This document shows, piece after piece, positions 12,336 through 55,859 of a stretch of DNA of 64,000 nt. The notes under the pieces were generated by a model. The model saw nothing but the letters and a program-made list of their open reading frames with translations, was not told the origin of the DNA and did no database searches. The stretch covers positions 155,250,001-155,314,000 of the forward strand of contig NC_086097.1 of NCBI RefSeq assembly GCF_963921235.1, given 5' to 3'. This DNA comes from Mobula hypostoma (lineage: Eukaryota). Each line of letters starts with the position of its first letter. Position 1 is the first letter of the stretch. The translations under genes and the position numbers were made by a program.

Positions 12336-12419
12336 ATAGTGACAAGATCTTCAAGAGGCCTTCCTCAACCCTCCTGGTATCTCCGCACTCCTCCAGTTCT
12401 GGACAAATATTCAACTACT

Positions 12420-13830
12420 TCTGGGACAGAGTCATACAGCAGGGAAACAGGCCATTCAGACCATCTTGTCCATGCCAAAGGAGTTGCCCAGTGAGCTGGT
12501 TGTATCTGTCTGTATTTGGCCCATGGCCCTCTGAACCTCTCCTGTCCATGTACTTATCAAGATGCTTTTAAACAATGCTGATGCCCCCGCCTCAACCACT
12601 ATCTTGGGTAACTCATTGTGAATACACACCACTCGTTGCAGGAAAAGATGCCCCTGATGTACTCTTAGCTATGATCAGAAACCTATCCCTCTTGAAGTAG
12701 CACCCTACCCCTGGGAAAAAAGACTGTGTGCGTTTACTCTGCTTATGACCCTTGTAGTCTGACACGCTTCTTACATGTTGCCTCCTAAATCTCATAGTTT
12801 CCAGGGGATAAAATCTATTTATGCAACCTTTCATCGTAACTCCTGCCCCTAAGTCTAAGCAGCATCCTGGCAAATCTGTTCTGCACTCTTCCCTGTTTAA
12901 TAATGCAAGACCAAAATAGGAGCAGAGTTAGGCCATTTGACCCAGTGAGTCTGCTCCACCATGGCTGATCCATTTTCCCTGTAGCCCCATTCTCCTGCCT
13001 TCTGCCCATATCCCTTCTTGTCCTGAAGAATCAAGAATCTGTCAACCACTCCCTTAAGTACATGGAAATACTTGGCCTCCACAGCCACCCGTGACAATGA
13101 ATTCCAGATTCACCACCCTCTGGCAAAAGATATTTTCCCCCACCTCCATTCTAAAACGACACCCCTCTATTGTGAGGCTTTGTTCTTTGGTCCAAGACTC
13201 TCCAACCATAGGAAACATCCTTTTCACATCCACTCTACTGAGGCCTTTCAACATTCAACTGGTTTCAGTTAGGCCACCCCTCATTCTTCTGATTTCCAGT
13301 GAATATAGGCCCAGGGCCATCAAACGCTCTTCACATGACAAGCCATTCACAATGGGAATCATTTTCATGAACCTTCTTTGAAGCCTCTCCAGTGTTAGCA
13401 CATCCTTTCTGAGCCCAAAACTGCTCATAATAATCCAAGTGAGGCCTCACCAGTGCTTTATGCAGCTTCAACATTAAATCCTTGCTTTTATATTCACATC
13501 ATCTTGAAATGAACACACACATCATTCTGCCTTCCTCACCACTGACTCAAACTGCAAATTAAATTTTAGAGAATCATGCACAAGGACTCCCACGTCCTTT
13601 GAGCCTCAGACTTCTGAATTTTCTCTTCATTTAGAAAATATTCTCCCTTTTTATTTCTTCCACCAAAGTGCATTACGATACATTTCCAGACACTATATAC
13701 CATCTGCCACTTCCTTGCCCATTCTCTTCATCTGTCTAAGTGCTACTATAGCCTCTCCAATTCCTCAACACTACCTGCCCCTCCACCTATCTTCATATTG
13801 TCTGCAAATGTAGCCAGAAAGCCATCAGTT
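12420..13830 (-). mobile_element. CR1-type LINE 3' fragments
   Basis: LKGLSRVDVKRMFPMVGESWTKEQSL...NIFCQRVVNL and CR1 3' tails; duplicated at ~51110..52485. Confidence 0.8.
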
Positions 13831-14519
13831 CCATTTTGTCAGATAAGATTTAATTTGGCTGTTTTGACACTGATCAACAGAAAAGACTCTTCCATTTCAA
13901 AGTGCCAACAGATCTTAACAAAGTGATCTTCCAGAACCCCGATTCCAGCCTCAACTTCCAGAAACACGATTCTTCCTCAGGAATTGATCCTTGGCAAAGA
14001 TCCAAAGGCAAGACCGATCACCAAACAATGGGAGTTCAAACTCTGGACTCATCAGTGGTGAACACTGAATGTCTAACTCCATTCTCATCAATTTAGGCAT
14101 CCAGGGGGTTACTGGAATTCATTCCTCCTGCCAACATAGAACTCAGACTCCAGAACCCGCTGACAGCTCTCTGTGAGTACACTGGGGAATTCAAAGGCAG
14201 AACATCTGCGAACCTATGAGTCTGCTGGAAGTTATGTTCAGTCTCGTTCTGTTGAACATTGTGGGAATGCTCTGTTGTCATCACTGTAACTTTTTCTGTA
14301 CATGTGACTCCAGAGGACCCAGAGAAAACCCATCTATTCCACAGTGAGAACGTATAGGGACACCTTACAGAGATGGCAGGATTTTAACACCAAAATCCAA
14401 CTCCCTGAGCTTTAATAATGTCGTATTAACTGCTCTGCGATCACGGTGTCCTGGTTGTTAACACAAACGACATATTTCACTCCATCTTTCTCTGTACATG
14501 CGGGAAATGAAAGAATCTG

Positions 14520-14870
14520 AATGTGAATGACTAAAGAAGGGAGGGAGTGAATGACTGAAAGAAGGAAGAGTGAGGAAGAGGATGAATGAGGGAGTGAGCA
14601 AGGAAGGGTGAGGTGAGTGAGCAAATGTACAAGAGAGGGAGTGAATATGAGAGGGCAGAAGGGAGAGTGAGCAAAGCTGAGTGAGTAAGTAACGAAGGGA
14701 ATGAATATGAGAGGGAAGGATGTGAGTGAGTGAGGGAGGGTATGATGGAGGAAGCCAAAAAATGAGGTAATTGGGTGAATGAATGAGCAAGGATGAGAGA
14801 GATCGAATGAGTGGACAAGGAATAGAGAGAAGGAATTCAGTGAATGTGAACTAAGGAAGGGAGAGGGGAC
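14520..14870 (+). repeat. Purine-rich low-complexity tract (degenerate GAGT/GAAT/GAGG units)
   Basis: Visible gagtgaatga/gagggagtga repeats directly beside the PLCD linker-exon donor; duplicated at ~53175..53525. Confidence 0.85.
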
Positions 14871-14874
14871 CTAC

Positions 14875-15017
14875 CTTTTCTTCAAGGTTCGGCTTCCTTG
14901 CATCCTCCTGCATTTCAGCAGCCTCATCTTCATCCGAGACCTCGTCATTCTCTGAGATGTGAATTCTTCCAATCGATCTACCTTCTTGAGCTTCACCTGG
15001 ATCTTTCCCTTTAGGTG
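14875..15017 (-). pseudogene. PLCD1: PLC-delta X-box end / X-Y linker exon with a net -1 frameshift (copy A)
   Basis: ctacag|...|gtaggt, 143 nt. The start reads HLKGKIQVKLKK (cf. QLKGKILLKGKK). The end, in another frame, reads EVSDEDEAAEMQEDARKPNLEEK (cf. VSDEDEAAEMEDEAVR). Confidence 0.88.
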
Positions 15018-16651
15018 CTGTAGCCATCACAAGACCAAGAAGGAACAACTGAGTGAGAACAGAGTCATACAGCACAGCAACAGGCTCTTCAGCCCAACTC
15101 CTCCATGCTGACTAAGATTTCCATCTGGACTCACTTGTCAGTGTTTACCCTGTAACCCTCTTGAACTTTCCAACCCACGTACCTGCTCAAGTATCTTTTA
15201 AGTGTTGTTTATATATTCACTTCCTCACCTGGGAACACATTCCATATACTGAGGACACTCTGAGTGAAAAAGTTTCCCCTCAGGTTCCTACTAAATCCCT
15301 TACCCTCGCCCCTAAGTCCTGTAGTTCTTGATACCTGAACCCTGGGTAAAAGAAGCTGTGTCTGCATTCACCCTTTCTATACCCCTCATGATTTTATACA
15401 CCTCAATAATATTGAGTACACCAAGGATGGCCTGTCCAGGGGTTGGAGGTGTGTATATGTACATGTCTGTGCGTTAGGAGAGAATCTGATGCTGTGGACT
15501 CTTGGCACACCATTGCTGAATCCACTCATTCTCGCACGATCTGAAATGTTCCCTTGTTCAGATATACTTTCCATCTCAGGAGCAATGAGTAGTATTTCTG
15601 CCTCATTCCAGTGTCAACTTGTGTATCTCCAGAATATATATATTTATTCTCTGTTAATATAATTGTGTTATTATTTTATGTGCTGTATGTGATATATGTA
15701 CTACGTATTGCACCCTGGTCCCCGACGAACATTGTTTAATTTGCCTAATACATGTGCATGGTTAAATGACAATAAAATTGAACTTGAACTTAACCATGAA
15801 CTTTCAGGTACCTATATATTTTTACTCCTAGGTCCTTCTGTTCTACAGCACTCTCCAGGGTTCTGCCATACACTGTAAAGGTGCTATTCTGGTTTGACTT
15901 CCCCAAAAAAAAACATTCATCTAAATTAAAATCCTTGCCATTTGCCAGCATTCTTGCATTCATCTAAATTAAACTCCATTTGCCATTCCTCAGGCCACAT
16001 ACCCAGCTGATCAAGATCCCTCTATAAATCCTGATACCATTTTCACTGTGATAGCCAAATCACCATAATATATAGGAGCAGAATTATGCCAGTCATCACA
16101 TTAAGTCTGCTCCATCATTCCATTATGGCTGATTTGTCGAACATAGAGATGAGGAGGCATTTCTTCAGCCTGACTGTGGTGAATCTGTGGAATTTCATTA
16201 CCACAGGCAACCGTGGAGGCCAAGTCTTACATATATTTAAGGCAGAGGTTGATAGGTCTTGATCGGTCATGGCATGAAAGGATATGGGGACAAGGCAGCA
16301 GTTTGGGGCTGAAAGGAAAAAAACAATCAGCCATAATGAAATGCCAGCAGACTCGATGGGATAAATACCTCAATTCTGCCCCTATATCTTATGGTCTTAT
16401 GATTATGGGGAGAATGGGGTTGCAGGTTGGGCACTTGGGAATGTGCTGCCTGGGGCAGTAGCAGAGGCAAATACAAAAGAGGCACTTGGAAGTTTCTTAG
16501 GCAGGCAATTGACTCTGCAGAGAATTCAAGAATCTGAGTATTGTGTAAACAGAAGGGATTAGTTTGCTCAGGCATTGAGTTACTCGTTTAATTAGTTCAT
16601 AACAACATCAGTTCAGGTGGGACAAAGTGCCTGTTCTTGAGTTGTCCTGTT

Positions 16652-16900
16652 CTACACTCATTGGCTACTTTATTTGGTACACTTGTACACCTGCTCGTTA
16701 CTTCAAACATCTAATCAACTAATCACATGGCAGCAACTTAATGCATAAAAGTATGCAGATGTGGTCAAGAGGTTCAGTTATTGTTCAGACCAAACAGCAG
16801 AAATTTGAATAAATGTGACCCAAGTGACATCAACTGTTGAATAATTGCTGGTGCCAGGTGGGGTGGTTGGAGCATCTCAGAAATTGGAGATCTGGTAACA
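16652..16900 (+). mobile_element. Tc1/mariner-like DNA transposon 5' remnant
   Basis: tacactcattggctactttatttggtacac terminus and decayed aagtgac...ttgctggtgccagg...agcatctcagaaa, homologous to 31090..31260. Confidence 0.55.
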
Positions 16901-17172
16901 TTCATAAGGAGAATGCACATCATTTCTGCGAGTGCACATCTTTTCTCCGAGTGTTCCATTTTCCCTCCCACAGTACAAAGACATACTTGTTAATAGGTTA
17001 ATAGCAACCTATAGGTTAATATTAACTTATTGTAAATTGTCCTATAATTAGGCGGCGTTAAATAGGTGTGTTGTTGGGCAGTGTGCTTGAAGGGCCAGAA
17101 AGACCTATTCCGCGCTGTACCTCTCAATAAAAGTAATTGAATAAATTTAATCATTAAAATACAGTACAGTCC

Positions 17173-17251
17173 CTTGAACAGGTCCACTGCACACATACTG
17201 TCCATATCTCTGTTCATCATCTGCATAAACTGCTTCATTTCTTTCAGACTC
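17173..17251 (-). pseudogene. PLCD1: PLC-delta EF-hand exon, 3' part (copy A)
   Basis: SLKEMKQFMQMMNRDMDSMCAVDLFK versus recalled [26 protein letters not shown]. The expected donor after FK reads GG, not GT. It lies just downstream of the PH exon remnant, as expected. Confidence 0.7.
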
Positions 17252-17902
17252 CTGGTAAGAGGCTGTTAGGTGCATCAATATGCATCAGTAACACAAACAA
17301 AGCACAAGTCAGGCAGCATCTATGCAAATGAATGAACAGTCGACATTTCGGGACAAGAACCTATATCAGAACTGGAATGATGGGGAAGATGCCAGAGAAA
17401 GGTGGTGGGGATGGGGGAAGCAACACAACCTAGAAGGTGATAATTGAAGACAGTGGCTGGGGGAGGGAGGATGAAGTCAACAGCTGGGAGGTGATAGGGA
17501 CAAAAGGTAGAGGGCTGGAGATGAAAGAATGTGATAGGAGAAGAGAGTGGACCATGGATAAAAGGGAAAGAGGTAGGACAATAGGTGATAGGCAGATGAG
17601 GAGGTAGGAAGAGGCCCGATGGGGGAACTGAAGAGAGGAGAGGAGAGGGAGGGAAAAATACTGGAAGCAGTGAATTCTGATGGAGGGTCTTAGCATAAAA
17701 TCATTTTTTAATATTTCTTAGTTACAATAAACCTGATTCTAATTCTGTGCTCCCATACCTTTATGTACCTTGTGTACTTCTAAGTCAGGATACGTGCCTT
17801 GGAGGAGAAGTGGTTCCCATGTCCTGCTGCCTGTGACTTCTACAGGGGGCTGAGCTTTCAGGCCACTGTCAGAGAAGACAATGGCCACTTAGTACAAGAT
17901 AC

Positions 17903-17998
17903 TGGCCAGCTGCTCGCTCGGCTTCATGCCAGAGTTTCTGTTCTTCAGTTTAATAAGGCCATTGTTCCAGTGCTGGGCCTCCTTGGCGCTGTTGACAA
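17903..17998 (-). pseudogene. PLCD1: PLC-delta PH-domain exon, 3' half (copy A)
   Basis: VVNSAKEAQHWNNGLIKLKNRNSGMKPSEQLA, homologous to the 4470..4570 segment. The 5' half is replaced by CR1 sequence from ~18000. Confidence 0.82.
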
Positions 17999-17999
17999 C

Positions 18000-21800: not shown

Positions 21801-22158
21801 TTCTACGTTCCACTCCCCACTCATTCCAGCAGCTCCTTCTTGTGATCACAGGGTCTTTATCCTGCATTCTCTGAGAGAAAGCAGGTGTGTGCAGTTAGTG
21901 GAACCTGGGAATGATTGGAAATTAAATGAGGGGATTGAGGCCCAATTCCTGAGGTAAATTGTAAGGTGGGGGATTGCCAGAAGGGACCATGACACTTATG
22001 TTAGAAAGAATGTACTGAAACTGGAGAGGGTTCAAATGAGGTGAATTAAAATGATTCCAGTACGAAATACCTTGTCCAACAAAGAGCATTTGATGGCTCT
22101 GAGCCTGTATTGACTGGAATTCAGAAGAGTGAGGGATGACCTATTGAATGTTGAAAGG

Positions 22159-23777
22159 CAAACAACAGGAATTCTGCAGATGCTGGAAATTCAAGCAACA
22201 TACATCAAAGTTGCTGGTGAACGCAGCAGGCCAAGCAGCATCTATAGGAAGAGGCGCAGTCGACGTTTCAGGCCGAGACCCTTCGTCAGGACTAACTGAA
22301 GGAAGAGTGAGTAAGGGATTTGAAAGCTGGAGGGGGAGGGGGAGATGCAAAATGATAGGAGAAGACAGGAGGGGGAGGGATAGAGCCGAGAGCTGGACAG
22401 GTGATAGGCAAAAGGGGATACGAGAGGATCATGGGACAGGAGGTCCGGGAAGAAAGACAAGGGGGGGGTGACCCAGAGGATGGGCAAGAGGTATATTCAG
22501 AGGGACAGAGGGAGAAAAAGGAGAGTGAGAGAAAGAATGTGTGCATAAAAATGAGTAACAGATGGGGTACGAGGGGGAGGTGGGGCCTTAGCGGAAGTTA
22601 GAGAAGTCGATGTTCATGCCATCAGGTTGGAGGCTACCCAGACGGAATATAAGGTGTTGTTCCTCCAACCTGAGTGTGGCTTCATCTTTACAGTAGAGGA
22701 GGCCGTGGATAGACATGTCAGAATGGGAATGGGATGTGGAATTAAAATGTGTGGCCACTGGGAGATCCTGCTTTATCTGGCGGACAGAGCATAGATGTTC
22801 AGCAAAGCGGTCTCCCAGTCTGCGTCGGGTCTCACCAATATATAAAAGGCCACATCGGGAGCACCGGACGCAGTATATCACCCCAGTCGACTCACAGGTG
22901 AAGTGATGCCTCACCTGGAAGGACTGTTTGGGGCCCTGAATGGTGGTAAGGGAGGAAGTGTAAGGGCATGTGTAGCACTTGTTCCGCTTACACGGATAAG
23001 TGCCAGGAGGGAGATCAGTGGGGAGGGATGGGGGGGACGAATGGACAAGGGAGTTGTGTAGGGAGCGATCCCTGCAGAATGCAGAGAGAGGGGGGGAGGG
23101 AAAGATGTGCTTAGTGGTGGGATCCCGTTGGAGGTGGCGGAAGTTACGGAGAATAATATGTTGGACCCGGAGGCTGGTGGGGTGGTAGGTGAGAACCAGG
23201 GGAACCCTATTCCTAGTGGGGTGGTGGGAGGATGGAGTGAGAGCAGATGTACGTGAAATGGGGGAGATGCGTTTAAGAGCAGAGTTGATAGTGGAGGAAG
23301 GGAAGCCCCTTTCTTTAAAAAATGAAGACATCTCCGTTGTCCTAGAATAAAAGCCTCATCCTGAGAGCAGATGCGGCGGAGACGGAGGAATTGCGAGAAG
23401 GGGATGGCGTTTTTGCAAGAGACAGGGTGAGAAGAGGAATAGTCCAGATAGCTGTGAGAGTCAGTAGGCTTATAGTAGACATCAGTGGATAAGCTGTCTC
23501 CAGAGACAGAGACAGAAAGATCTAGAAAGGGGAGGGAGGTGTCGGAAATGGACCAGGTAAACTTGAGGGCAGGGTGAAAGTTGGAGGCAAAGTTAATAAA
23601 GTCAACGAGTTCTGCATGCGTGCAGGAAGCAGCGCCAATGCAGTCGTCGATGTAGCGAAGGAAAAGTGGGGGACAGATACCAGAATAGGCACGGAACATA
23701 GATTGTTCCACAAACCCAACAAAAAGGCAGGCATAGCTAGGACCCATACGGGTGCCCATAGCTACACCTTTAGTTTG
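22159..23777 (-). mobile_element. Penelope-like retrotransposon, 5'-truncated (partial RT + GIY-YIG endonuclease)
   Basis: RT motifs MGTRMGPSYACLF and LFLRYIDD (22911..23759). GIY-YIG motif VIYCVRCSRCGLLYIGETRRRLGDRFAEH (22588..23331). One frameshift near 23340. TSD gaatgttgaaagg at 22146..22158 and 23778..23790. Confidence 0.95.
22258..22293 (-). ncRNA. Minimal type I hammerhead ribozyme in the Penelope terminal repeat
   Basis: Minus strand reads AGTC-CTGACGA-AGG(GTCTCGG)CCT-GAAA-CGTC-GACT: core CUGANGA and GAAA boxes, stem I AGTC/GACT, stem II AGG/CCT, and a GUC cleavage triplet. Penelope-like elements are known to carry such motifs. Confidence 0.8.
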
Positions 23778-25089
23778 GAATGTTGAAAGGTCATGATAAA
23801 GTGGATGTGGAGAGGATGTTTCCTCTGGTTGGACATTCTAGGACCAGAGAACAAAGCCTCAGAGTAGAGGGGTGTCATTTTAGAATGGAGATGAGGGGGA
23901 ATTTCTTTAGCCAGAGTGGTGAATCTATGGAATTTCTTGACACAGGCAGCTGTGGAGGCTAACTCTTTACATATATTTAAGGCAGAAATTGACAGATTCT
24001 TGATTGGTTAGGGCATGAGATGATACAGAGATTGGGGCTGAGAGGAAAAGTGGATCAGCCATGATGAAATGGTGGCACAGACTTGATGGACCAAATGGCC
24101 TGATTCTGCTCCTATATCTTGTGGTCTTCTCCAACAGTGCCCTCCAAGTCCTGACTTAGAAGTACATAAGGTACGGGATTCAGGTTTATTGTCACTGACA
24201 TAAGCCTTGAAGTTTGTTTTGCAGTAAGAAATATAAAAAGTAATTTTAAGCCAAGACAGACCCTTCCTCAGGATTCTGTGCTTAAAATTTTCCCCCTCCC
24301 CTTCCCCTCTTCTTCAAATCCCCACTGGCCTCTTACCACTTCACCTCACCTCACTTCACTTATGATGGGGGTGTTGAGTAGCCTGAATGCTTGGATAAAG
24401 TAACTGTTTTTGAGACTGTCACTTTTGAATCAGACACACGCACACACACACGCAAACTCTTATCTGAGTCCTTGACTCTCTACCCAACCCGCCCAGTTCT
24501 CAGGCCTTCTCACTGTTGTCAACTCACAGGGAGGAGAGGTTTCTGCAAAGTATTGCCAGCCCCAGTCGCTCGTTATGAACGGGACTCTAACCTGCCCTGA
24601 TTCCCTGGATACCTACCCAGAGTTTGCCTCTACTTTCCCCATCCCTCCCCAACCACCCCTGCCTAAAGCCAATGCAGTTCCTGATGGGTTTGTATTTACA
24701 AGTTCCGTGTGTCAGGTCTGCCACTTAGCTCTGAAGATGCACAAACTGTGGTCTGCCAGTCAGGTAGTCCATGTAACTGCTTATGAGAGCTCAGCCAAGA
24801 AACATGACTGCCTTTGATAGTTCTGACTGGTAATGTGACATGTCTGGGTGAGTAGTGCATCTGTGAATCACAATCTGTTGAAAATCAGCTGCCTTGGTTG
24901 TTTGATCCAGGCTGAATCCCAGTAGGTTCACATGCATCTCCAGCCCTCAGTGGCCACAATTCAGTTACAGTGACATTTGGATGGAGGTAAGGATGAAACT
25001 TAAAGTTGTGACAAAGGTTATTACCATTCTACAGAACATTACAACACTTCAACCATTACAACATTACAACCGTGGTAGTAGGGGACTCC

Positions 25090-30719: not shown

Positions 30720-30919
30720 NNNNNNNNNNNNNNNNNNNNNNNNNNNNNNNNNNNNNNNNNNNNNNNNNNNNNNNNNNNNNNNNNNNNNNNNNNNNNNNNN
30801 NNNNNNNNNNNNNNNNNNNNNNNNNNNNNNNNNNNNNNNNNNNNNNNNNNNNNNNNNNNNNNNNNNNNNNNNNNNNNNNNNNNNNNNNNNNNNNNNNNNN
30901 NNNNNNNNNNNNNNNNNNN
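30720..30919. other. Assembly gap (200 N)
   Basis: Run of N. The round length suggests a placeholder of unknown true size. Confidence 0.99.
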
Positions 30920-31520: not shown

Positions 31521-31592
31521 GCAACTGTATTTAATATAAAAACCTTGATACAGCAATCGTGCCTAAACATCTATTCTCTCACACTCACTCGC

Positions 31593-33455
31593 TCACACAT
31601 CTGTTGGTATGAGACAATTTTTACCTTCAGCTTCTTTGTGAGAGTTTGCATTCAAATCTTCTGTATATTTTGTGATGTGAACTGAATCCTCTTTGCAGAA
31701 TCTTGACTGCAGTGTCATATCAGTGGGCACCATTCCCTCACCTCGGCAGCCCTCTTGTTCACATCTTTGCCATTCTCTGTGGAGTTTTTGATTTGTTCTT
31801 GGCCATCTTCTCTTGTATTCTGTCTTCCCGTCCTCAGCCAATCTCACCTCTGCATACCTTCGTTTCTTAACGCCAAGAAACTTTCCTACCGATTGCAATC
31901 TTCCACTCAATGGAGCTCTTCTGTCACCCACCTTTGTGGTGTCATCTGATCCACACTCTGGACTCTGTTCATCGTTCTGCACTTGTTCTTCACTGCTCAT
32001 TCCTTGATCCCCTCTTTTAAGTCCCACTTTCTCTTCTCCCACAATTACATTGTCTTTCCTTTCATTATTCACTTCCTCCTCAGCAATGATTCCTTCATCC
32101 TTAATTTCATTTATCATGTTCTCATCCCAGGTATCTCCGTTTTTGAACACTTGGTTCATTGTTGGGACAGCCACCTCTGACGGAAAATTCCCAACAGCTA
32201 GCTCGGGACCTGGCTGTTCCAGTAAACTAATTCCATGCTGCTTTCCTTCATCCCCTTCTTCCATATTATCACTCCCAATATTCTGGCTCTCTGGTTTCCT
32301 ATTCAGAGCTCCTTCCTCTGAATAACCTTCCTGCAAATCCAGGCTACCCTCACCTGGACACAAATTTTCAGTTTCATGTTCTGACTCTCTAACCTCAGGA
32401 GCCAAGCTTTCAGCTTCCAGATTTTCCATCTTGATGATTACTGGTAGACTCCAGCACCCCAAGTTTTCTGGCTCCACTCGCTCAACGTCCTGCTGGGCGA
32501 CGCCTGCTCCGAGCTCAGCTTCCCCAGCTTGGGGGCCCTTCCTGGCATTCTTCCTGCGGGCCCAGAGGCTGGCAGCAACAGCGGCCCCAACAGCTAGCTC
32601 GGGACCTGGCTTTCCATCTGGCTGTTCTAGTAAACTAATTCCATGCTGCTTTCCTCCATCCCCTTCTTCCATATTATCACCCCCAATATTCTGGCTCTCT
32701 GGTTTCCTATTCAGAGCTCCTTGCTCTGAATAACCTTCCTGCAAATCCAGGCTACCCTCACCTGGACACAAATTTTCAGTTTCATGTTCTGACTCTCTAA
32801 CCTCAGGAGCCAAGCTTCCAGCTTCCAGATTTTCCATCTTGATGATTACTGGTAGACTCCAGCACCCCAAGTTTTCTGGCTCCACTCGCTCAACGTCCTG
32901 CTGGGCTACGCCTGCTCCGAGCTCAGCTTCCCCAGCTTGGGGGCCCTTCCTGGCATTCTTCCTGCGGGCCCAGAGGCTGGCGGCAACAGCGGCCCCAACA
33001 GCTAGCTCGGGACCTGGCTTTCCATCTGGCTGTTCCAGTAAACTAATTCCATGCTGTTTTCCTTCATCCCCTTCTTCCATATTATCACCCCCAATATTCT
33101 GGCTCTCTGGTTTCCTATTCAGAGCTCCTTCCTCTGAATAACCTTCCTGGAAATCCAGGCTACCCTCACCTGGACACAAATTTTCCGTTTCATGTTCTGA
33201 CTTTGTAACCTCGGGAGCCAAGCTTCCAGCTTCGAGATTTTCTGTCTGAATGATTACTGGTAGACTCGAGCACCCCAAGTTTTCTGGCTCCACTCGCTCA
33301 ACGTCCTGCTGGACGACGCCTGCTCCGAGCTCAGCTTCCCCAGCTAGGGGGCCCTTCCTGGTATTCTTCCTGCGGGCCCAGAGGCTGGCGGCAACAGCGG
33401 CCCCAACAGCTGACAGGCTGAGGAGCAGCAGCGCAGATAGTTTGTGGCAGCACAT
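31593..33455 (-). CDS. Uncharacterised 620-aa acidic protein with an N-terminal signal-anchor-like segment and three ~136-aa tandem repeats
   Basis: Only long intact non-transposon ORF in the window. ATG in context gcgggATG, with an in-frame TAG 11 codons upstream. Hydrophobic LSALLLLSLSAVGAAVAASLW is followed by basic ARRKNTRK; the body is Glu/Gly-rich. ATTAAA lies ~60 nt after the stop (31530..31535). Confidence 0.6.
   Translation of the reverse strand: MCCHKLSALLLLSLSAVGAAVAASLWARRKNTRKGPLAGEAELGAGVVQQDVERVEPENLGCSSLPVIIQTENLEAGSLAPEVTKSEHETENLCPGEGSLDFQEGYSEEGALNRKPESQNIGGDNMEEGDEGKQHGISLLEQPDGKPGPELAVGAAVAASLWARRKNARKGPQAGEAELGAGVAQQDVERVEPENLGCWSLPVIIKMENLEAGSLAPEVRESEHETENLCPGEGSLDLQEGYSEQGALNRKPESQNIGGDNMEEGDGGKQHGISLLEQPDGKPGPELAVGAAVAASLWARRKNARKGPQAGEAELGAGVAQQDVERVEPENLGCWSLPVIIKMENLEAESLAPEVRESEHETENLCPGEGSLDLQEGYSEEGALNRKPESQNIGSDNMEEGDEGKQHGISLLEQPGPELAVGNFPSEVAVPTMNQVFKNGDTWDENMINEIKDEGIIAEEEVNNERKDNVIVGEEKVGLKRGDQGMSSEEQVQNDEQSPECGSDDTTKVGDRRAPLSGRLQSVGKFLGVKKRRYAEVRLAEDGKTEYKRRWPRTNQKLHREWQRCEQEGCRGEGMVPTDMTLQSRFCKEDSVHITKYTEDLNANSHKEAEGKNCLIPTDV
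32190..33410 (-). repeat. In-frame coding tandem repeat, units of 408/408/396 bp
   Basis: Units start at 33410, 33002 and 32594 (GCTGTTGGG = AVG), with a terminal AVG at 32198. The third unit lacks 12 nt (DGKP). Confidence 0.95.
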
Positions 33456-33889
33456 CCCGCTGTTCCAGGGGATACAAGTAGAATTCTAACAATATTGCAG
33501 AAGCAAAGCAAGAAGGTACTCCCCTCTTCAGCAGGGAGAAGCACAAAACTTGGACTTTGCCAATAGACAACTTCTGTCCTACAGTTATTAAAATACTTAG
33601 CAGTCCCTTGAAAAATAACATGCACTGATGACCTCACAATCTAGCTCATTATGACCTTGCTCAAGAAAATGTACGAGTATTGTGGACACAGATCATCATG
33701 ACATCATGAAAACCAGCCTCCCATTTTACATGAAGATGTATTCATGAACTCACAATCTATATAGTCATAGTCATACTTCACTGATGTCAAGGGAAATTGG
33801 ATTTCGTTACAGTTGCCCATAAATAAATACTAATAAAACAATAAATAATTAAATAGTAATATGTAAATTATGCCAGGAAATAAGTCCAG

Positions 33890-35005
33890 GACCAGCCTAT
33901 TGGCTCAGGGTGTCTGACCCTCCAAGGGAGGAGTTGTAAAGTTTGATGGCCACAGGCGGGAATGACTTCCTATGACGCTCAGTGTTGCATCTCGGTGGAA
34001 TGAGTCTCTGGCTGAATGTACTCCAGTGCCCAACCAGTACATTATGTAGTGGGTGGGAGACATTGTCCAAGATGGCATGCAACTTGGACAGCATCCTCTT
34101 TTCAGACACCACTGTCAGAGAGCCCAGTTCCATCCCCACAACATCACTGGCCTTAGGAATGAGTTTGTTGATTCTGTTGGTGTCTGCTACCCTCAGCCTG
34201 CTGCCCCAGCACACAACAGCAAACATGATAGCACTGGCCACCACAGACTCGTAGAACATCCTCAGCATCGTCCGGCAGATGTTAAAGGACCTCAGTCTCC
34301 TCAGGAAATAGAGACGGCTCTGACCCTTCTTGTAGACAGCCTCAGTGTTCTTTGACCAGTCGAGTTTATTGTCATTTCGTATCCCCAGGTATTTGTAATC
34401 CTCCACCATGTCCACACTGACCCCCTGGATGGAAACAGGGGTCACCGGTGCCTTATCCCTCCTCAGGTCTACCACCAGGCTTTAGTCTTTTTCATATTAA
34501 GCTGCAGATAATTCCGCTCACACCATGTGACAAAGTTTCCTACCGTAGCCCTGTACTCAGCCTCATCTCCTTTGCTGATGCATCCAACTACGGCCGAGTC
34601 ATCAGAAAACTTCTGAAGATGACAAGACTGTGCAGTAGTTGAAGTCCGAGGTGTAAATGGTGAAGAGAAAGGGAGACAAGATAGTCCCCTGTGGAGCCCC
34701 AGTGCTGCTGATCACTCTGTTGGACACACAGTGTTGCAAGTACATGTAGTGTGGTCTGCCAGTCAGGTAATCAAGTATCCATGACACCAGGAAAGCATCC
34801 ATCTGCATCGCTGTCAGCTTTTCCCCCAGCAGAGCAGGGAGGATGGTGTTGAATGCACTGGAGAAGTCAAAAAACATGACCCTCACAGTGCTCGCTGGCT
34901 TGTCCAGGTGGGCGTAGACACAGTTCAGCAGGTAGACGATGGCATCCTCAACTCCTAGTCGGGGCTGGGAGGCGAACTGGAGGGGATCTAAGTGTGGCCT
35001 AACTA
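33890..35005 (-). mobile_element. Rex1/Babar-like LINE RT and 3' region
   Basis: LDPLQFA, VRVMFFDFSSAFNTI, GAPQGTILSPFLFTIYT and YKYLG...KGQSRLYFLRRLRSFN motifs. Confidence 0.9.
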
Positions 35006-35864
35006 TATCATCAAGATCTTGCTCGTAACTACAAAATAATGAAAAATGTTTGTGGATACAGTTCAGCACATCATGGAAACCATCCTCCCCACCATGAACT
35101 GTGTCGGCCCGTCCCACTATCTCAGCAAAAACACCGGCTTATTCAAAGACCTCTCCCATACCAGATATTTTCCCCTCTCCCGTCTCCCATCAGACGGCAG
35201 ATACAAAAGCCTTAAAGCACAAACTAGCACCCGACACAAGAACAGCTTCTATCTTTCTGTTATAAGACGATTGAACTGTCCCCTTATACAATAAGATGGA
35301 CTCTTTATTTCACAATCTATCTCAATATGATCTTGAAAGTGATCAAAAGAATCTGCAGTGGGATGGACGTAGCTTTGCGCATCACCGAAACCAGCCTCCC
35401 CTCCACTGACTCTGTCTGCACTTCTCACTGCCTCAGTAAAGCAGCCAGAATAATCAAAGACCCCTCCCACCTCAGACAATATTTCTTACTACCTCCGGCA
35501 AAAGACTCAAAAACCCGAAAGCATGCACCACTCAGCACAAGGACAGCTTCTACCCCGTTTTAAAAAACTATTGGCAGATACAGTAGGGACAATTAGAAAC
35601 TTAGATAGGCACATGGATGATAGAAAAAATGTGGGCTCTGTGGGAGGGATTAGATGGATCTCAGAATACTTTGAAAGGTCCGATCAACGTCATGAGCTGA
35701 ATAGCCTGTACTTGGATAGACTCTTGAACTCATTTTGATCTTGCACTTGATTGCTTACTTGTACTGCACTTTCTTTGTGACTGCTAAACTTTATTCTGCC
35801 TTCTGTTAGATTTTTTTTACATTGTACCCATTGCACTAAGTAATCTGTATGAACACTTTGCAAG

Positions 35865-36559: not shown

Positions 36560-38050
36560 ATTTAATGCCACAATGTCCACCCTCCAATCTCCTAGTGCAC
36601 ACTGCCATTTTTGATGACGCTTTGCGGAACGTGGAAGAGATCTTTGCCGCCATCTGCCAGGTGAATCAGCCTCTCTGCCGTGCAAAATGCAGTTTGCTGC
36701 GCCACCAGACGAAGTTACTGGGGCACATGTTGAATGTGGAAATAAGTGGCAACTGACCCTGAGAACGTGGTGGCGGACAGGGAATGACAGATCCCTTGCA
36801 TTGTCTCCGAGCTTCTTGGCATCGCAGGGCTGGTATCATACTACTGTCCATTTATTACAGACTTCACCACCATCGGCAGTTCCCTGCAGCAGCTCACATA
36901 CAAGGGAAAACCCTTCGCCTGGACTGACACCTGCGCTGCCACCTTAAACCAGTTCCGAGCTGCGCTCACCAAGCCTTGGTGCTGGCAGGCATACCCCAAT
37001 CCAGCACGCCCTTTCATTGATGACACAGACACCAGCAACAGTGGGCTCAGCGCAGTGCTGTCACAGGAGGGATACCAAGGAAAATGCAGTTTGGCATACT
37101 TCAGCTGCACCCGGTGCTGCCCAGAAATGAACTATTTTGTCACCCATCAGGAGCTCTTGGCCACTTTCACCCCTACCTCTTCAGCCGACTGATCCTGCTT
37201 CACATGGAGTATGCGCCGTTGACCTGGCTATTGAGCTTCCATGGTCCCAAGAGGCAGCTGGTGCGGTAGCTGGAAGCTCTCCATGACTACGATTTTGAGG
37301 AGCGGCACCGTGCCGGAAGGCACCACAGCAATGCTGACGTCCATTCTCCTCGTCCCTGTGAGGCCACTGAGTGTCACTACAGTTGCCACCTCGAAAATGG
37401 AGCCAGCAGCAAGCATGGTGGCGACAGTTCAGGCGGCGGCCCGTGGTGAGATAGACCTCCCCATCATTGAGCACAAGCAGCTGCACTGCGAACACGAAAG
37501 TGATGTCACGCTGGCCCGGTTGAAGGGGTAGCTGCATATTGGACGGTGGCTGGAGTGGGCAGAGGTCTCCACCCTGGATCTAGAGACGAAAGCCCTACAC
37601 TCTCAGTGGGGCATACTGGAGGTGCACGATGGGTGGTTGTTACAGCAGTGGCGGTTTTCAGATGGCAACAGACATCTTCTGCAACTGTTGGTGCCCCAGG
37701 GCTTCTGTGCCGTCGTGCAGCAGTGGGTGCAGAGGCTGGTCAGGGCCTTCCACTTCGGTGTTGCAAAGACATTGGGCAAGCTGCATGAATGCTTCTACTG
37801 GCCTGCGTGCAGTCAGCAGTCAGGACGTGGAGCTGTTTGTACACTTGCACATCTCAGAAGGGGCTATACCACCAATGCAGCAGTACCTGGTGGGGGTCCC
37901 AATGGAGTGCGTAGGGTGGCCATCTTGGACCCCAAACCCTCACCGACAGCAGGAAGCACTACGTTCTTGTGGCCATGGATTACTTCATGAAGTGGCCAGA
38001 GGCATACATGGACCCGGACCAGAGCCGCCACCACCACGCTGCTGTTGGAG
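36560..38050 (+). mobile_element. Gypsy pol remnant (RT, RNase H, integrase), heavily degraded
   Basis: AKCSLLRHQTKLLGH, an FIDDTDTSNSGLSAVLSQ-like segment, HFGVAKTLGKLHECFYWP and VAMDYFMKWPEA; GC-rich. Confidence 0.75.
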
Positions 38051-43147: not shown

Positions 43148-43370
43148 TTAGCAAATGTCCAGCTGCTCTCTCCATTTCATGCTGGAGTTTCTGTTCAAGA
43201 GTATGATAAGGCTATCGATCCAGTGCTGGGCTTCCTTTGCAATGTTGGCCACCAGGTCCAAGTTCTTTTTCCTCTCCTTAAACACAATGGTGAAGCTGCA
43301 TTTGTGCACTTCTCCGAGATCATGCCTGACGAGTGACCTGCCCTCAGCTCCAAGATGTCAATGATCGAGA
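43148..43370 (-). pseudogene. PLCD1: PLC-delta PH-domain exon, frameshifted (copy B)
   Basis: Duplicate of 4470..4692 with the same frameshift. Confidence 0.85.
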
Positions 43371-46300
43371 CTGAAGGGGGTCGGGTAGGTCAGGGGTGGG
43401 GGAGAACAGCAGCAGAGATCAAAACAAGATATTCACATTCAGATTAATAAACACCACCTGCAGCTACTGAAAATCCCTATTAACGCACATAAAATGCTGG
43501 AGGGACTGAGCAGGTCAGGCAGAATCAATGGAGAGAAATAATGAGTTAAGTAAAATAAACTTGGGTGATGAAAGAACTTTGCAACACAGGTCGTTAAGAT
43601 GGCAAAGAAGGCATCTGGAATATTTGCCTTGATTGGGCAGAGGATTGAATAGAAGACGTTGCAACTTAAAAATTTGGTTAGGCCAATTTTGTGGCCACTC
43701 TTCCCATTACAAGAAGGATGTGAGAGCTTTGGAGAGGGTGTCAGAGTGTTTCCCCAGGATGTTGGCTGGATTTGATGGTGTGAGCTCCAAGGAGAGTTTG
43801 ACAACTTAGGTTGTTTTCTTGGAGTATTGGAGGCTGAGAAAAAAGACACAGTAGAATTATGTACAATTATGAGAGATACAGTATAGATAGGGTGGACAGT
43901 TACAATCTTTTTCCCAGGATATAAATGGTAAATACTAGAGAATGTGCATTTAAAGTGAGAAAGTGAAAAGAGATGTGCGGGACAAGGTTTTGCACACAGA
44001 GAGTGGTGATTGCCCTGGAACAGGCTGCGAGGGGTAGTGGTAGAAGCAGACAGAAAAGTGATGTATAGAGACCCGTGGACCTTAAGGTATTATATTTCAA
44101 TGCAGCCAGTATATAGAACAATGTAGAAAACCTTGTATTGCAGTTAGAGATCGGCAGGTATGATATTGTGGGTCTCACCGAGTCGTTACTGAAAGAAGAT
44201 CATAGTTGGGACCTTTAAATCCAAGGATATACATCGCATCAAACGTACAGGCAGGTAGGCAGAGGGTGCGGGTGGCTCTGTTGGTAAAAAAAAATGATTA
44301 CAAATCCTTAGAAAGAGGTGACATTGGATCTGAAGATGTAGAATGCTTGTGGATAGAGTTTAAAAAACAATGGAATACAAGCCTCTGAACAACAGCCAGG
44401 ATGTTGGCTACAAATTACAACAGGAGATAGGAAAAGCATGTCAAAAAGGCAATGTTACTATAGTCATGGCAGATTTCTATATGCATGTAGATTCCGAAAA
44501 TCATGATGGTGATGCATCTCAGCAGAATTACAGTAGCTTTGGTTGAACTTACTAACAGAAAGGCAATTCTGGATTCAGTGCTAAGAAAGGAACTACATTT
44601 GATTAGGGTGGTTCAGGGTAAAGGAAAACTTCAAAGGATATCAAGTTTTTTTTTGCATCAGTCTTCACAGTAGAAGACACTAGCATGCCAGAAGTTCGAG
44701 AGGCATCAAGGGGCTGAAGTGAATATAGTTGAAGGTATCGGAAAAGTGAAAGGTCCGAGGTGAATAAGTAAAATGGATCAGCATGTTATTTACTTGGATT
44801 TTTATAAGGCCTTTGACAAGGTGCCACACATGAAGCTGCTGAAGAAGCTGATGGTCCATGGTATTTCTCAGATTGATAGAAGATTGGCTGAGTAGCATGA
44901 GGCACAGAGTGGGAATAAAGGGGGCCTATTCTGGTTGGCTGCCGGTGACTAGCGGTGTTCCACAGGGTCGGTACTGGGGTAGCGTCTTTTCACATTGCCT
45001 GTCAACGATTTGGGTGATGGACCTGATGGCTTTGTGGTCAAGTTTTCAGACAATGATGGAAAGATAGGTGGAGAGACAGGTAGCATTGTGTCTGTAGAAT
45101 TATAGATCAATTAAATTAAAAGCACACACACACAGGATAGCTTTAACTGATGCATTCACTTTGCAGGGAGACAGAGAGAGAGAGAGAGATCAGTGTGCAT
45201 GCATACACAGTAGATCAATGTGCACAGGTAAATCATCAGTCCCTATGTCGTGCTAGGATGAGTAATTGCCTAAAAGAAATAGATCCATATGTTAGACTTC
45301 CTCCGGCTTTAGATGAATGTAACAATTAACTGTATTTGAAACAAAACATGAAATTTCCCTTTCACAAACCACATGAAAAAATTAAACATGATTCACAGTA
45401 ACACCCCATAACTAACTTCACTAGAGATTCAGTCTTTTGGGTGGCACTCTGTTTCTTTCAGGATATTGCCTTTGGACCTGCAGAGTGGTATCAGGTTTGG
45501 CAGGTGTCTGGTCGACAACATTCTCTGTCACTGACTATAATGTGTCCGTCTCACTGGATGCAGTCAACTCTGGCGTGTTCTTCAGCTGAACGACCAGTAC
45601 CTGCTCCATATGGCGTCTCCATGTATGATCTCCAACATCCACTGTGTACATCAATGCTCTGGATCTTGCAACTATCCTACCAAATGTTGACTTGTCTTCT
45701 CGGTAATCAGGCGCTAGGACTTCCTGTTCAACCTTGAAACTCCTTGCTGATTCACTTGGCAACTAGTTGAGTTGTTTATTCTGCACTTTCCTCCATAGAT
45801 GTGGTTTCAGGTCTATGCAAAACCTCATACTCTTGCTCATGAACAGCACTACAGGTGTTTGATTTGTCGTTGCATGAACACACAAAAAGGAAACTGTCCA
45901 CTCTGTGCTGTCGAGTAATGGCCTCCTAGTCCAGAGCTTTAACAGACCTCTTGAACCTCTTGGATGAACATTTCAGCAAACCCATTTGTTGCTGGGTGGT
46001 GTGGAGCTGACTTGATATGCCTAATATTTTTTTCATGAGTACTCTGAACTCTTGTGAAGTGTATTGTCATCCGTCGTCACTCACAATATGTTCAAGTTAG
46101 CCTTTTCTGGCAAAGATAGTCCTCAGGGTGAATGCAGCCTTTTCTGATGTGGTTGACTTCATTGGTATGACCTCTAGCCACTTCAAATGAGCATTCACAG
46201 CAATCAGAAATACGGAGTCCATGAATTGACCCAGAGAATTCATTATACACTCTTTGCATAATGAAAGACGGGCACTCCAGTGGGTGTAATGATGCCTGTG

Positions 46301-48277
46301 GGGGTACATTTTGAACTTTGTCTATCCATTCCCAGCCACCACACATAGCTTCAAGCAGGACTCTTCATCTTGACTGTACCAATGCAGATTCTCAAACACT
46401 CTGGTCTGCAGTTTAGTGGGAACCACAACACGAGATTCGCACATCAGCGTTCTTTGACATACAGACAGTTGGTCTCAACTCAGTGAGAACTCCGGAAACA
46501 GGATTACCATGAACTGTCCAACTTTCCATGAAGATGTCACAGACTTTTGACAATGTTGGGTCATTCCTTGTTTCATTTTATATTTCAGAATTTGTCACCA
46601 ACAGCTGGACTTCAAATGCTGTGTGAAACACTTCTGCTGGGTCACATTATGGGTAAAAATTCCATTACATGAATCACATACCGGCCTCCAAATAGTAGCC
46701 AAGAAGTGAGGTTGAGATTGCAAGGGGAATTGGAAAATGCATGTCAAAAGGTAATGGCACAATTGTAATGGGGGACTTTAATATGCAAGGGGATTGGGAA
46801 AATCAGGTTGGTGTTGGATCGCAAGAGAATGCCAATGAGATGGCTTTTTAGAGCAGCTTGTGCTTGTGCCGACTCAGGGAAAGGCTATCTTAGATTGGGT
46901 GTTGTGTAATAATCCAAATCCTATTACAGAGTTTAATGTAAAGGATCCCTTAGAAGGCAGTGATGATAATATGTTTGAATTCATACTGCAATTTGAAAAA
47001 GGGAAGCATAACTCACATCGCACTGGAATAAAGGGAATTAGAGGTGTGAGGAATGAGCTCCTCCAGGTGGATTGGAGGACAATACTTGCAGGGATAATGG
47101 CAGAGCAGAGACAGCTGAAATTTCTGGGACTAGTTCACAAGGCGCTGGATTGATATGTACCAGAGAGGAAGAAGTACTCAAATTCGCCTATGGGCACAAG
47201 CAATCAACAGACGATGCAATAGCCACTACTCTACATACTGTCCTCACACATCTGGAGAAGAAGGAAGCTTATGTGAGAATGCTATTCTTGGACTACAGTT
47301 CAGCATTTAACACCATAATTCCATCCAGGCTCGAGAGGAAACTCAGAGAACTCACATTGACCCCGCCTTTTGTAGCTGGATCCTGGACTTCCTGTTAGTT
47401 TGCCTACATTGATGTGGTTCCTAAAGGTTGTTATACCCGGAGATGGTAATGGGGACAATCTCCCACTGCCTATTAAATGCTCCTAAAGGCGTATGCCTCA
47501 AGTAGCCTCTGACAACCAAATCCAACTCCTGGACTTCATACGTGGCTCAGCTACTAATTTCTCTTGACAGGAGAAGGGGCAAAGGCGGGCTACTAGAGCC
47601 TTAAAACTAGTAACTTCAGACAGATGGGTCTCAGCAAACATGGTTCACTGCTCACCGAGGAGAAGGAAAACTCTGATCTCGAACCTCCACTGCCTGGAAG
47701 TTATACTCATTTATGGGGAAGGCTTCGGGAGTAAACCCCTGAGAGAAAATCCCAACCTGGAGACCCTAAGGTGGTCCTACATGGAATTCAATGCTGCTGC
47801 CACAAGAAAGCAGCATCCATCATCAAAGACCCTCATCAAAGGCCTTGCTAAAGCATCATTTTTATAAGTTCTAATGTATTTCTTTTTCCTGTAAATGCCT
47901 GCAATAAAATGAACCTTAAGGTCATATATGGTGGGCATATATTTACTTTGAGAATAAGTTTACTTTGACTTGATTCTCCTTTAACTTTACCTTTATATTG
48001 CACATAAACTGTATTTCCCTCATCAAACATTGCTGTTATTTCACTGTAATGTTTGAATTTAACAAATTTACACTGCTTTACTCCCATCACTCCATGTTTC
48101 CAAGTAACTGCTAATGGCATGCCAAATCTCCATTTCTGGAAGTTAACCAAGTATCAAGTTCATTCAGACAGACTGCTCTGTCGTTATTGGCCCTTTTACT
48201 GAGAAAGCTTATGAATCATCTTTTATATTGACTTGAGTGAAGTCTTTGAACTTTGAGATATGTTTTGTCTCACTTAC

Positions 48278-48434
48278 TTGAGTCCTGCACCAGTTTAATG
48301 AACTTGTTTCCCATGAAGGGCAATATCTCAAAGAAGACCCAGTTACCCACGGCACTTTCAACCCTGTGGAAGTGGACACTCTTGCAGTAGATAAGCAGGT
48401 CGGGCAGCTCCTTGAATAGCTTGATGTTTGCACC
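48278..48434 (-). pseudogene. PLCD1: PLC-delta Y-box first exon (copy B)
   Basis: Duplicate of 9597..9753 with the same translation and splice sites. Confidence 0.88.
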
Positions 48435-48714
48435 CTGCAAGGAAGAGTTCACAGACACACAAGTTATCCTGCCGAAGTTCACTGAGCAACCTTCAATTTC
48501 AGTAAGACCAAGGACTTCAGGAAAAGGAAGTCAAAGGAACAGACACCAGTCCTCTCCTTGGGTTCAACAGTGTTTCATCCAACATTAAGGACCACTGCAC
48601 CCAGTGATGATATACCTGATTCCTATGCTGAGTAAATCAATCCTGTGGCCAATTCAGTGCTTATTGAGGTAGACAGTGAGTGCCTAAAGGATTTAGCCTT
48701 AACCACCTGTGTCA

Positions 48715-51020
48715 AGATCTTCCTTTCAATCTTTTTTTATTGATTTAAAAGAATAAGGATAAATACAAACCAGAAGAGAGGTTATCACAAATACATATAT
48801 CAATAACAGTACAAACATAGAAAGGAATATACACTGTCAAAATCATAGATAGTATTAAGCTAATATAAAGAGAACCACTTCTCCTCTTAACAGTTCATAG
48901 GAAAAAAAGAGTCAAGATTTCCTGTTATTGAGAAAAAAAACCACTAAACTAACCTAAAACAAAAAAAAAAGGGGGACTGGGCAGTCCATTTTGAGGATAC
49001 AGTTAAAGGGAAAATCCTTCTGATCAAATCTAAACCTTTGCAGAGAAAAAAAATTAACTGGAAAAGTAAAAAGAATTAGATCATATGAAAATATTGAATA
49101 AAAGGTTTGCTCAGATTTAAGAGATGTATCAAATGTCCGACTCCTGATTTTCTCCAAAGTTAAACAAGACATAATGGAGAGCCAAAAAAAAACAGTAGGT
49201 GCATCCTTCCAGTACAATAGAATAGCTCTCCTAACCAATAAAGTTCAGAAAGCTATAATTCGTTAAGCGGAAGCGGGAACGTTTTCTGCTTCCATTGGAA
49301 TAATCCCAAAGATTGCCGTAAGTGAATTAGGTTGTAGGTCCAGACTTACAACTTCTGATATCGTTCTAAAAACATCTCTCCAAAAGTTATTTAACTTTAT
49401 GCAGGACCAAAACACGAGTTGAAGTGGCCACCTCAGTATTGCATCTATCACAAGTAGGATTTATATTAGAAAAAATATGTGCGAGTTTATCTTTTGACAT
49501 ATGCGCCCTGTGCACTACCTTGAACTGAATCAAGGAGTGACGGGCACAATTAGGTGAATTATTAACTAAATGACAAATTTTATTCCATTGATTATCTGAA
49601 AGTCACTCTTGAAGTTCCAATTCCCAAGCATGTTTAACCTTATCATCAGACATCATTTGTAAATTCAATAGCCGTTTATATATGATGGCTATAAATCCTT
49701 TTTGGAATGGCTTAAGCTTAAAGATAACATCTATCATATTTGGTAAATGAGCAAATGGGTAATTCGGTAACAAACCGTGTAAAAAAATTCCTAACTTCTG
49801 AATACCTAAAAAAATTGTGCATTAGATAAATCATATTTGTCCACTAGCTGACAGAAAGACATTAAACAATCCTCTAAAAACAAATCTAGATAAGTTATTA
49901 TTCCCTTAGTTTTCCATGTTAAAAAGGCCTTATCTAAAATTGATGGTTTAAAAAAATAATTAAAATGGATATTACTAGAAAGAACAAAGATATTTAAGTC
50001 AAAATACCAAGATAGGTAAAATAATTTTAGCAATATTAAAAGGTATTTGATCATATTGATCTTAATAATTATTAATAGGAAATACTTCACTTTAAGGTAA
50101 ATTTAACTTGTATCCAGAGAAAGTACTGAATTCAGTAAATATGGATAACATAGAAGGAACAGATTTCCTAGGGTCTGAGATGTAAACTAATAAGTCATTT
50201 GCGTAGAATGAAACGTTATGTCCTTTATTCCCTTTCTTAATACCCTGAACAGAGTTGGAATCCTTAAGAGCGATAGTAAGTGGTTCTAAAGCCAAATTAA
50301 ATAATAAAGGACTAAGAGGACAACCCTGATGGGTTCTTCTGTATAGTCTAAAATAAGGAGATTTTTTTATTGTTAGTTATGACCACAGCCATCAGAGCTT
50401 GATACATCAGTCCGATCCAGGAAATAAATCCCGGACCAAAATTAAATCTCTCCAAAACCTGAAATAAATAAGGCCATTCCACCCTATCAAAGGCTTTCTC
50501 TGCATCAAGAGAGACAATACATTTAGATTCTTTAAATGAGGGAGAATAAATAATGTTTAACAATATTTGAATATTAAAATGTGAATACCTATTTTTAATA
50601 AATCCAGTTTGATCATTTCAAATAACAGTATGCAAAATATTCTCAAGCCTACCTATTAGCAGAATCTTAGAGAGAATTTAAAAGTCCATATTCAATAAGG
50701 AAATTGGTCTATAGGAGGCACACTCAGATAGATCTTTTCCTCTTTTAGGAATCAAAGAGATTGATGCCTCATAAAAAGTTTTCAGGAGATTCCCAGAGGA
50801 TATAGAATCAGTGAAAGTTTGCCTGAGATGTGATGTAAGCGTTTCAGTAAATGTCTTATAAAATTCCACCGTATATCCATCTGGTCCTGGAGCTTTCCCT
50901 CGTTGCATAGAGGATATAGCCCGAGCTATTTCCTCTTGTTTAACAGGCACATCTAATGTGTTAATATCTTGAATAGAAATTTTAGGTATATTTAACTTTT
51001 GCAAAAATCTATTCATAAAG
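48715..51020 (-). mobile_element. L1-clade LINE ORF2 (copy B)
   Basis: Duplicate of 10030..12335. Confidence 0.9.
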
Positions 51021-53528: not shown

Positions 53529-53671
53529 CTTTTCTTCAAGGTTCGGCTTCCTTACATCCTCCTGCATTTCAGCAGCCTCATCTTCATCCGAGACCTCGTC
53601 ATTCTCTGAGATGTGAATTCTTCCAATCGATCTACCTTCTTGAGCTTCACCTGGATCTTTCCCTTTAGGTG
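53529..53671 (-). pseudogene. PLCD1: PLC-delta X-Y linker exon, frameshifted (copy B)
   Basis: Duplicate of 14875..15017 (VSDEDEAAEMQEDVRK). Confidence 0.88.
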
Positions 53672-55780: not shown

Positions 55781-55859
55781 CTTGAACAGGTCCACTGCAC
55801 ACATACTGTCCATCTCTATGTTCATCATCTGCATAAACTGCTTCATTTCTTTCAGACTC
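55781..55859 (-). pseudogene. PLCD1: PLC-delta EF-hand exon, 3' part (copy B)
   Basis: SLKEMKQFMQMMNIEMDSMCAVDLFK; NIEMD is closer to PLCD1 NIQVD than copy A is. Confidence 0.72.

Follow-up and report, generated by a model that had tools for sequence, protein, structure and literature searches.

The longest open reading frame in a 64,000-nt stretch of Mobula hypostoma DNA (the window) can with high confidence be assigned, on homology, as the first coding exon of a PLCD1-like duplicate. Our favoured reading of the gene, drawn from sequence comparison and held with moderate confidence, is that of a batoid PLCD1 duplicate encoding an anchored, PI(4,5)P2-binding pseudoenzyme. After splicing, the gene would encode a protein of about 1350 aa that comprises the N-terminal anchor, about 580 acidic residues of low structure and PH, EF, X, Y and C2 domains, a layout that is seen in the relatives and presumed for the window copy. 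The full-length form of this anchored duplicate was found only in Mobula. Gene models for it are already public under a PLC-delta-1-like name and the frame is therefore no orphan; a predicted anchor on PLCD1 would be new as far as our searches show.

Identity of the exon

The 620-aa frame and its stop codon run from 33455 to 31593 on the minus strand, as obtained by frame translation of the 64-kb window. Of the 24 frames that reach 150 aa it is the longest (runner-up 308 aa), and 348 non-redundant codons are open, with a chance expectation of 0.0003 such frames per window. The long, intact, non-transposon frame reported in the preliminary description is thus real, the other long frames being transposon-like as judged by eye. 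The features of the exon and its downstream end are:

31625-33455, minus: coding exon 1 of a PLCD1-like gene, with 1831 nt that make up 610 codons plus 1 base (phase 1), assigned by homology of Met1 to residue 610 and by the donor
31619-31624, minus: splice donor GTAAAA, start of intron 1, aligned with the junction where ordinary PLCD1 isoforms differ
31530-31535, minus: ATTAAA from the sequence, intronic under the exon reading

Residues 1-610 match the N-terminus of annotated Mobula PLC-delta-1-like proteins at 93-97%. In case of XP_062905177, 304 of 327 residues match and the alignment stops at residue 610, while the closest relative, XP_062905040, is identical at 500 of 515 residues (97% aa). 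After the position of residue 610, all six relatives continue into the PH domain, and all six relatives with the anchor exon use this donor position. The donor sequence at codon 610 is AAG/GTAAAA (phase 1, 31625/31624, minus strand), and it is at this junction that ordinary PLCD1 isoforms exchange their first exons. Since homology ends and a donor lies at codon 610, the frame is read as the 1831-nt exon; its last 10 codons (to 31593) come from reading on into intron 1, where the stop and ATTAAA also lie. As read from these alignments, the comparison shows a new exon that has replaced the short soluble first exon at a conserved phase-1 junction. In place of a stand-alone orphan gene to which no family could be assigned, as first proposed, residues 1-610 clearly match a known exon, that of annotated Mobula PLC-delta-1-like genes, and the family is PLC-delta-1-like by homology search.

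Relatives and state of the window copy

A homologue search with 8000 scored candidates returned two proteins, both from M. hypostoma (XP_062905177 and XP_062889702). A second search, again with 8000 scored candidates, gave two hits and added XP_072102218 from Mobula birostris, and a cluster look-up added XP_062889675, XP_072102231 and XP_062905040. Among 1.84 billion representatives the exon had one match, in Mobula; the ESM Atlas held no homologue of it and Pfam no family at the cut-off. No homologue of the exon was detected outside Mobula in the two 8000-candidate searches, the 1.84 billion representatives or the ESM Atlas, and all matches being Mobula proteins, the earlier view of a lineage-restricted sequence stands. 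So does its suggestion of probable multiple copies, the exon being present in several annotated Mobula proteins. A transposable-element ORF was rejected, as no Pfam element family reached the cut-off and only self-repeat matches were found within the window. No paper on Mobula phospholipase C or on PLCD1 duplication in cartilaginous fish was found in the literature searched, which covers few subscription journals.

All relatives are computed gene models on one contig each. Four are full-length, namely XP_062905177 and XP_062905040 in M. hypostoma and XP_072102218 and XP_072102231 in M. birostris, and XP_062889702 and XP_062889675 contain anchor, spacer and PH domain only, with no enzyme domains. 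Both M. birostris models look complete. The M. hypostoma models look patched, XP_062905177 with intron read-through at the X-Y linker and XP_062905040 with a start antisense to a pol-like remnant, no anchor and an insert in C2; some copies may therefore be decaying. The exon-1 models of XP_062905177 and XP_062889702 are open with 195 of 360 columns identical and six gaps (protein models only), which suggests a maintained frame better than does dN/dS among the repeat units described below.

Two features bear on the state of the window copy:

30720-30919, no strand: assembly gap of 200 N within intron 1, 705 bases from the donor
36759-36851, minus: predicted first exon in the XP_062905040 model, 31/31 residues identical, antisense to a pol-like remnant

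Judging from the sequence, we regard it as fairly probable that the window copy is joined to an intact gene body. Exon 2 was not found in the window, including the 31 kb downstream of the exon (best match E 0.39); the gene body may be concealed by the gap at 30720-30919, or the gap may be where two contigs were joined. Two blocks of the window, 1-27016 and 38592-64000, lie 38.6 kb apart on either side of the N gap and share 98-99% identity, either through a tandem duplication in the recent past or because a second haplotype was not collapsed in the assembly. The match runs past the left end of the window, and a twin exon is therefore expected near -7000 to -5100. It is conceivable, though unlikely, that exon 1 and its upstream DNA were duplicated without the body, or that the right contig is a second haplotype; the exon would then be part of a pseudogene, an allele or the alternative first exon of a body left of the window. 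The arrangement of the blocks and the missing exon 2 are in line with this, and XP_062905040 differs from the window exon by about the block divergence and shares upstream DNA with it, since its first 31 residues map to 36851-36759. However, two full-length copies are annotated on the largest chromosome of both Mobula species, so that true tandem genes exist, and the window exon, undisrupted in all of its 610 codons, includes the anchor missing from the XP_062905040 model.

Phospholipase C part of the relatives

XP_062905177 contains the full Pfam PLC set in the order PH-EF-X-Y-C2, the same order is listed for XP_072102218, and relatives match rat PLC-delta-1 structures with E 2e-162 and 8e-178. 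Mobula PLCD1a, encoded on another chromosome, shares 66% identity with the derived duplicate. In 23-row and 15-row trees of PLCD1 sequences only, the full-length clade (100/100, branch 0.44-0.51) falls inside elasmobranch PLCD1. An origin from Mobula's own PLCD1a was rejected as a sister placement (AU p=0.010 under the model used), and the duplication therefore seems, on these trees, to predate the Mobula-stingray split; an origin outside all batoid PLCD1a was not rejected (AU p=0.16), and the placement may be distorted by the long branch. Among the best 120 of 2302 hits there was no derived-type protein from another genus and no PLCL-named protein, the other 118 being PLCD1, generic PI-PLC or unnamed and the nearest relatives PLCD1a at 66%.

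With residues numbered on rat chain 1djg_A (+132), H311, N312, E341, H356, K438, K440, S522, R549 and Y551 are kept in 4/4 full-length relatives (catalytic and substrate roles in PLC-delta-1 as given in extracts of PMC11174929 and PMC3195387). D343E and E390R are present in 4/4 full-length relatives, whereas D343 and E390 are intact in 19/19 ordinary PLCD1; together with N312 and E341 these are the calcium ligands of PLC-delta-1 (extracts of PMC12195575 and PMC11174929). Changes at columns invariant in the 19 ordinary PLCD1 were counted for XP_072102218. The X box has 24 of 74 such columns changed, compared with 4/30 in PH, 6/32 in EF, 3/41 in Y and 4/42 in C2 (24/74 in X vs 14/104 in PH+EF+C2, Fisher p=0.003). 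In a leave-one-out control, ordinary proteins change 0-9 of about 235 invariant columns vs 48/232 in XP_072102218. Within the X box, invariant columns are changed about as often as variable ones (32% vs 24/66, 36%), which points to lost constraint. The PH-domain arginine equivalent to R40 is retained in 4/4 full-length relatives. Such an arginine is needed for PI(4,5)P2 binding according to an extract of PMC6726632. Altered calcium ligands, a relaxed X box and kept PI(4,5)P2-binding residues together indicate that the protein most likely binds rather than cleaves the lipid, and by this comparison the product of the window copy would probably have little or no catalysis.

By analogy, R390 might instead replace calcium and give an active, calcium-independent PLC on an organelle, which we consider improbable. 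In bacterial PI-PLC an arginine (Arg69) stands in for calcium, a precedent that was not found in the literature searched. Of 11 active-site residues listed, nine are kept, and the Y box is constrained, features that a long-dead enzyme need not show; D343E is a conservative change, and C2 is constrained as well. On the other hand, the X box is changed as fast at invariant as at variable columns, and the PH-only paralogues show that some family members can do without the enzyme.

Predicted membrane anchor

The N-terminal features of the exon are:

33378-33455, minus: predicted signal anchor, residues 1-26, MCC start, hydrophobic 6-26 (KD19 2.02; helix 4-31)
33348-33377, minus: basic flank, residues 27-36, net +5 by charge count

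The described hydrophobic N-terminus with a basic flank was readily recovered: the Kyte-Doolittle 19-window reaches 2.02 at residues 6-24, on a scale uncalibrated against known anchors, and net +5 follows at residues 27-36. ARRKN (net +3) directly after W26 provides a Tom20-type signal-anchor feature. KD19 is 1.72-2.27 in 6/7 exon-bearing rows and at most 1.29 in 167 ordinary PLCD1; an N-terminal anchor-like segment occurs in 0/167 ordinary PLCD1 proteins of at least 500 aa, and the anchor exon was thus rejected as an isoform of ordinary PLCD1a. AlphaFold2 modelling of the 620-aa translation with a 4-row alignment gave a mean pLDDT of 40.4, with 567 of 620 residues below 50 and a sole predicted helix at residues 4-31 (pLDDT 70-80). 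The model suggests a largely disordered frame, the alignment being one of few rows. Cys2-Cys3 (33447-33452, minus strand) could, by analogy, be palmitoylated; the PH-only paralogues retain one cysteine.

A cleaved signal peptide, with the protein secreted or luminal, is very improbable. The short n-region, leucine-rich core and AVA at residues 20-22 would suit one by the usual signal-peptide rules, but PH, EF and C2 domains function in the cytosol. The net charge of +5 right after the hydrophobic stretch also argues against it, given that basic charge after the hydrophobic stretch of the Tom20-type signal anchor inhibits SRP function (extract of PMC2192658). With its basic flank the anchor fits this Tom20 rule. 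Judged from its sequence, it would most likely insert with its N-terminus in and its C-terminal side in the cytosol, in the mitochondrial outer membrane or the ER. If its hydrophobicity is moderate, this and the basic flank would favour the mitochondrial outer membrane first and the ER second, going by the same extract.

The ATTAAA that had been noted past the stop is present 58 nt on (31535-31530, minus strand) but is intronic under the exon reading, and each poly(A) hexamer occurs at 0.66/kb on the minus strand, leaving a chance of about 12% for either within 100 nt. Least probable of all is a stand-alone, single-exon 620-aa protein polyadenylated at this hexamer in intron 1: the in-frame stop 10 codons beyond the donor, the nearby ATTAAA and the absence of the gene body from the window agree with it, but all six exon-bearing relatives splice at the donor, the exact 620-aa sequence is absent from the protein collection searched and the hexamer is common.

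Spacer and repeats

Downstream of the anchor the exon encodes a spacer, most of it repeated:

33003-33410, minus: repeat unit 1, 408 nt, aa 16-151, overlapping the anchor (array and alignment)
32595-33002, minus: repeat unit 2, 408 nt, aa 152-287 (array and alignment)
32199-32594, minus: repeat unit 3, 396 nt, aa 288-419, with a 12-nt deletion common to XP_062905040 (array and alignment)
31626-32198, minus: unique spacer, aa 420-610, acidic with one basic patch (composition)

The tandem array spans 32210-33411 with a period of 408, 2.9 copies and 96% identity. Three repeats that re-use half of the anchor had been described and are real, a half-anchor opening each unit at aa 16, 152 and 288. 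The internal half-anchors reach a hydropathy of only 0.70 vs 2.02 for the true anchor and were rejected as extra transmembrane segments. The 10-nt sequence AGCTGTTGGG is found at the start of every unit and just past the last one. We infer that unequal exchange at this microhomology inside the anchor copies 408 nt and lets the spacer grow. A half-anchor is then present in every unit because the exchanged 408 nt begin inside the anchor, and no function is needed to account for it.

The 12-nt deletion of unit 3 sits between two AGCCAG direct repeats and is common to XP_062905040, so that it represents one slippage event. That the length difference keeps the frame, as had been pointed out, is correct, but as a single event it is weak evidence of selection. 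dN/dS among the three units is 0.38-0.52, but on only 7-19 differences, uncorrected and from comparisons that are not independent. The number of units is one in XP_062905177, XP_062889702 and XP_062889675, two in XP_072102218 and XP_072102231, and three in the window exon as well as in XP_062905040 if its partial first unit is counted. The unique spacer (aa 420-610) is 96-98% identical to the four full-length relatives and 52% to the PH-only paralogues. Inside this acidic region lies a basic patch (aa 509-570, net +9, with KKRR; 31746-31931, minus strand), which, going by its composition, might contact acidic lipids or serve as a nuclear signal.

Relation to known systems and possible function

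The window copy shares its exon (93-97%) and junction with all four full-length Mobula models, and with XP_062905040 also the third unit and its 12-nt deletion. The models differ from it in unit number (one in XP_062905177, two in XP_072102218 and XP_072102231, three in the window), the body of the window copy being out of view. Ordinary PLC-delta-1 (elasmobranch PLCD1a; rat 1DJX series and 1MAI) has the same domain order, catalytic histidines, substrate residues, R40 and exon-1 junction as the relatives. In contrast, its first exon encodes at most 73 residues (102 rows scored), it has no anchor (0/167) and D343 and E390 are kept (19/19). The anchor-plus-PH paralogues XP_062889702 and XP_062889675, on a 40-Mb chromosome, have a homologous anchor exon (52-66%) with one unit spliced to PH exons and no enzyme domains, whereas the window exon belongs to the full-length class.

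PLC-delta normally reaches membranes reversibly via its PH domain; a hard-wired anchor, joined to a spacer that repeats can tune and to an active site in decay, remodels it in an uncommon way. PRIP is cytosolic and an old, separate lineage; the Mobula form arose from PLCD1 by a young duplication, has a membrane anchor and differs in its lesions. The PH-domain arginine equivalent to R40 is a likeness to PRIP (4/4 relatives), while no PLCL-named protein that would suggest orthology to PLCL1/2 was among the best 120 hits. PRIP (PLCL1-2) is PLC-delta-1-like and inactive, and binds and shields PI(4,5)P2 via its PH domain (extract of PMC6726632). In the mechanism that we favour, a spacer of 320-580 residues would hold the PH domain, together with a PLC core that is weak or dead, off the anchoring membrane. 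From this fixed organelle membrane, the PLC part would bind or shield PI(4,5)P2 like PRIP, possibly on a facing membrane. Ist2-type ER-plasma-membrane tethers combine a membrane anchor, a long disordered linker and a distal membrane-binding end (extract of PMC12617493); the likeness to the Mobula form is one of layout alone, with no sequence relation, and tethering is putative.

A bolder extension, which we offer tentatively and think rather doubtful, is a ray family of organelle-anchored PI(4,5)P2 tethers, with a PH domain and with or without a dead PLC core, whose reach is tuned by the 136-residue repeats. If so, the 3-unit window exon would be its longest-reach member, PRIP-like pseudoenzymes would have had an independent second origin, and, as far as our searches show, the family would be the first case of a vertebrate PI-PLC derivative that has a transmembrane anchor of its own. 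If expressed, the proteins would form a natural series, with 1, 2 or 3 units and the enzyme present or absent, in which to follow the change from an enzyme to a lipid-binding scaffold or contact-site tether; if silent, the window exon would be one more copy in a birth-and-death cluster. For annotation, an apparent orphan is corrected to one exon of a family already modelled in two Mobula genomes.

Other features of the locus

Decaying PLC-delta surroundings had been described and were found, in the form of five decayed PLCD1-type fragments in each block, detected by local tblastn with fetched homologues:

4479-17999, minus: five decayed PLCD1-type exon fragments (17999-17907, 17250-17173, 15020-14857, 9756-9595, 4690-4479)
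43157-56606, minus: the five fragments again, in the duplicated block, by block comparison

The fragments are about 45-73% identical (core exon matches) to XP_072102218 and to an ordinary protein, and two contain frameshifts. At least 95% identity would be expected of the window gene's own exons, as which they were rejected; by sequence, those in both blocks appear to be remains of older paralogues. Each block has two different PH-end exon fragments (17999-17907 and 4690-4479, minus strand), so that at least two older PLCD1 duplicates left pieces. In the Y-box exon fragment (9756-9595 and 48437-48276, minus strand) the frame is open and both the AG and the GT end are intact. XP_062889702 and XP_062889675 end in a tail that reads the homologous Y-box exon out of frame.

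A 1.6-kb insertion at 22146-23778, present only in the left block and flanked by a 13-nt direct repeat, contains reverse-transcriptase and GIY-YIG-like frames and is probably Penelope-like. On the same strand as the exon, a remnant at 33897-35138 (minus), which we take to be a LINE-type reverse transcriptase, ends about 440 bases before the ATG. A pyrimidine-rich, acceptor-like AG (33459-33485, minus strand) ends 4 nt before the ATG, and a non-coding exon may therefore sit upstream.
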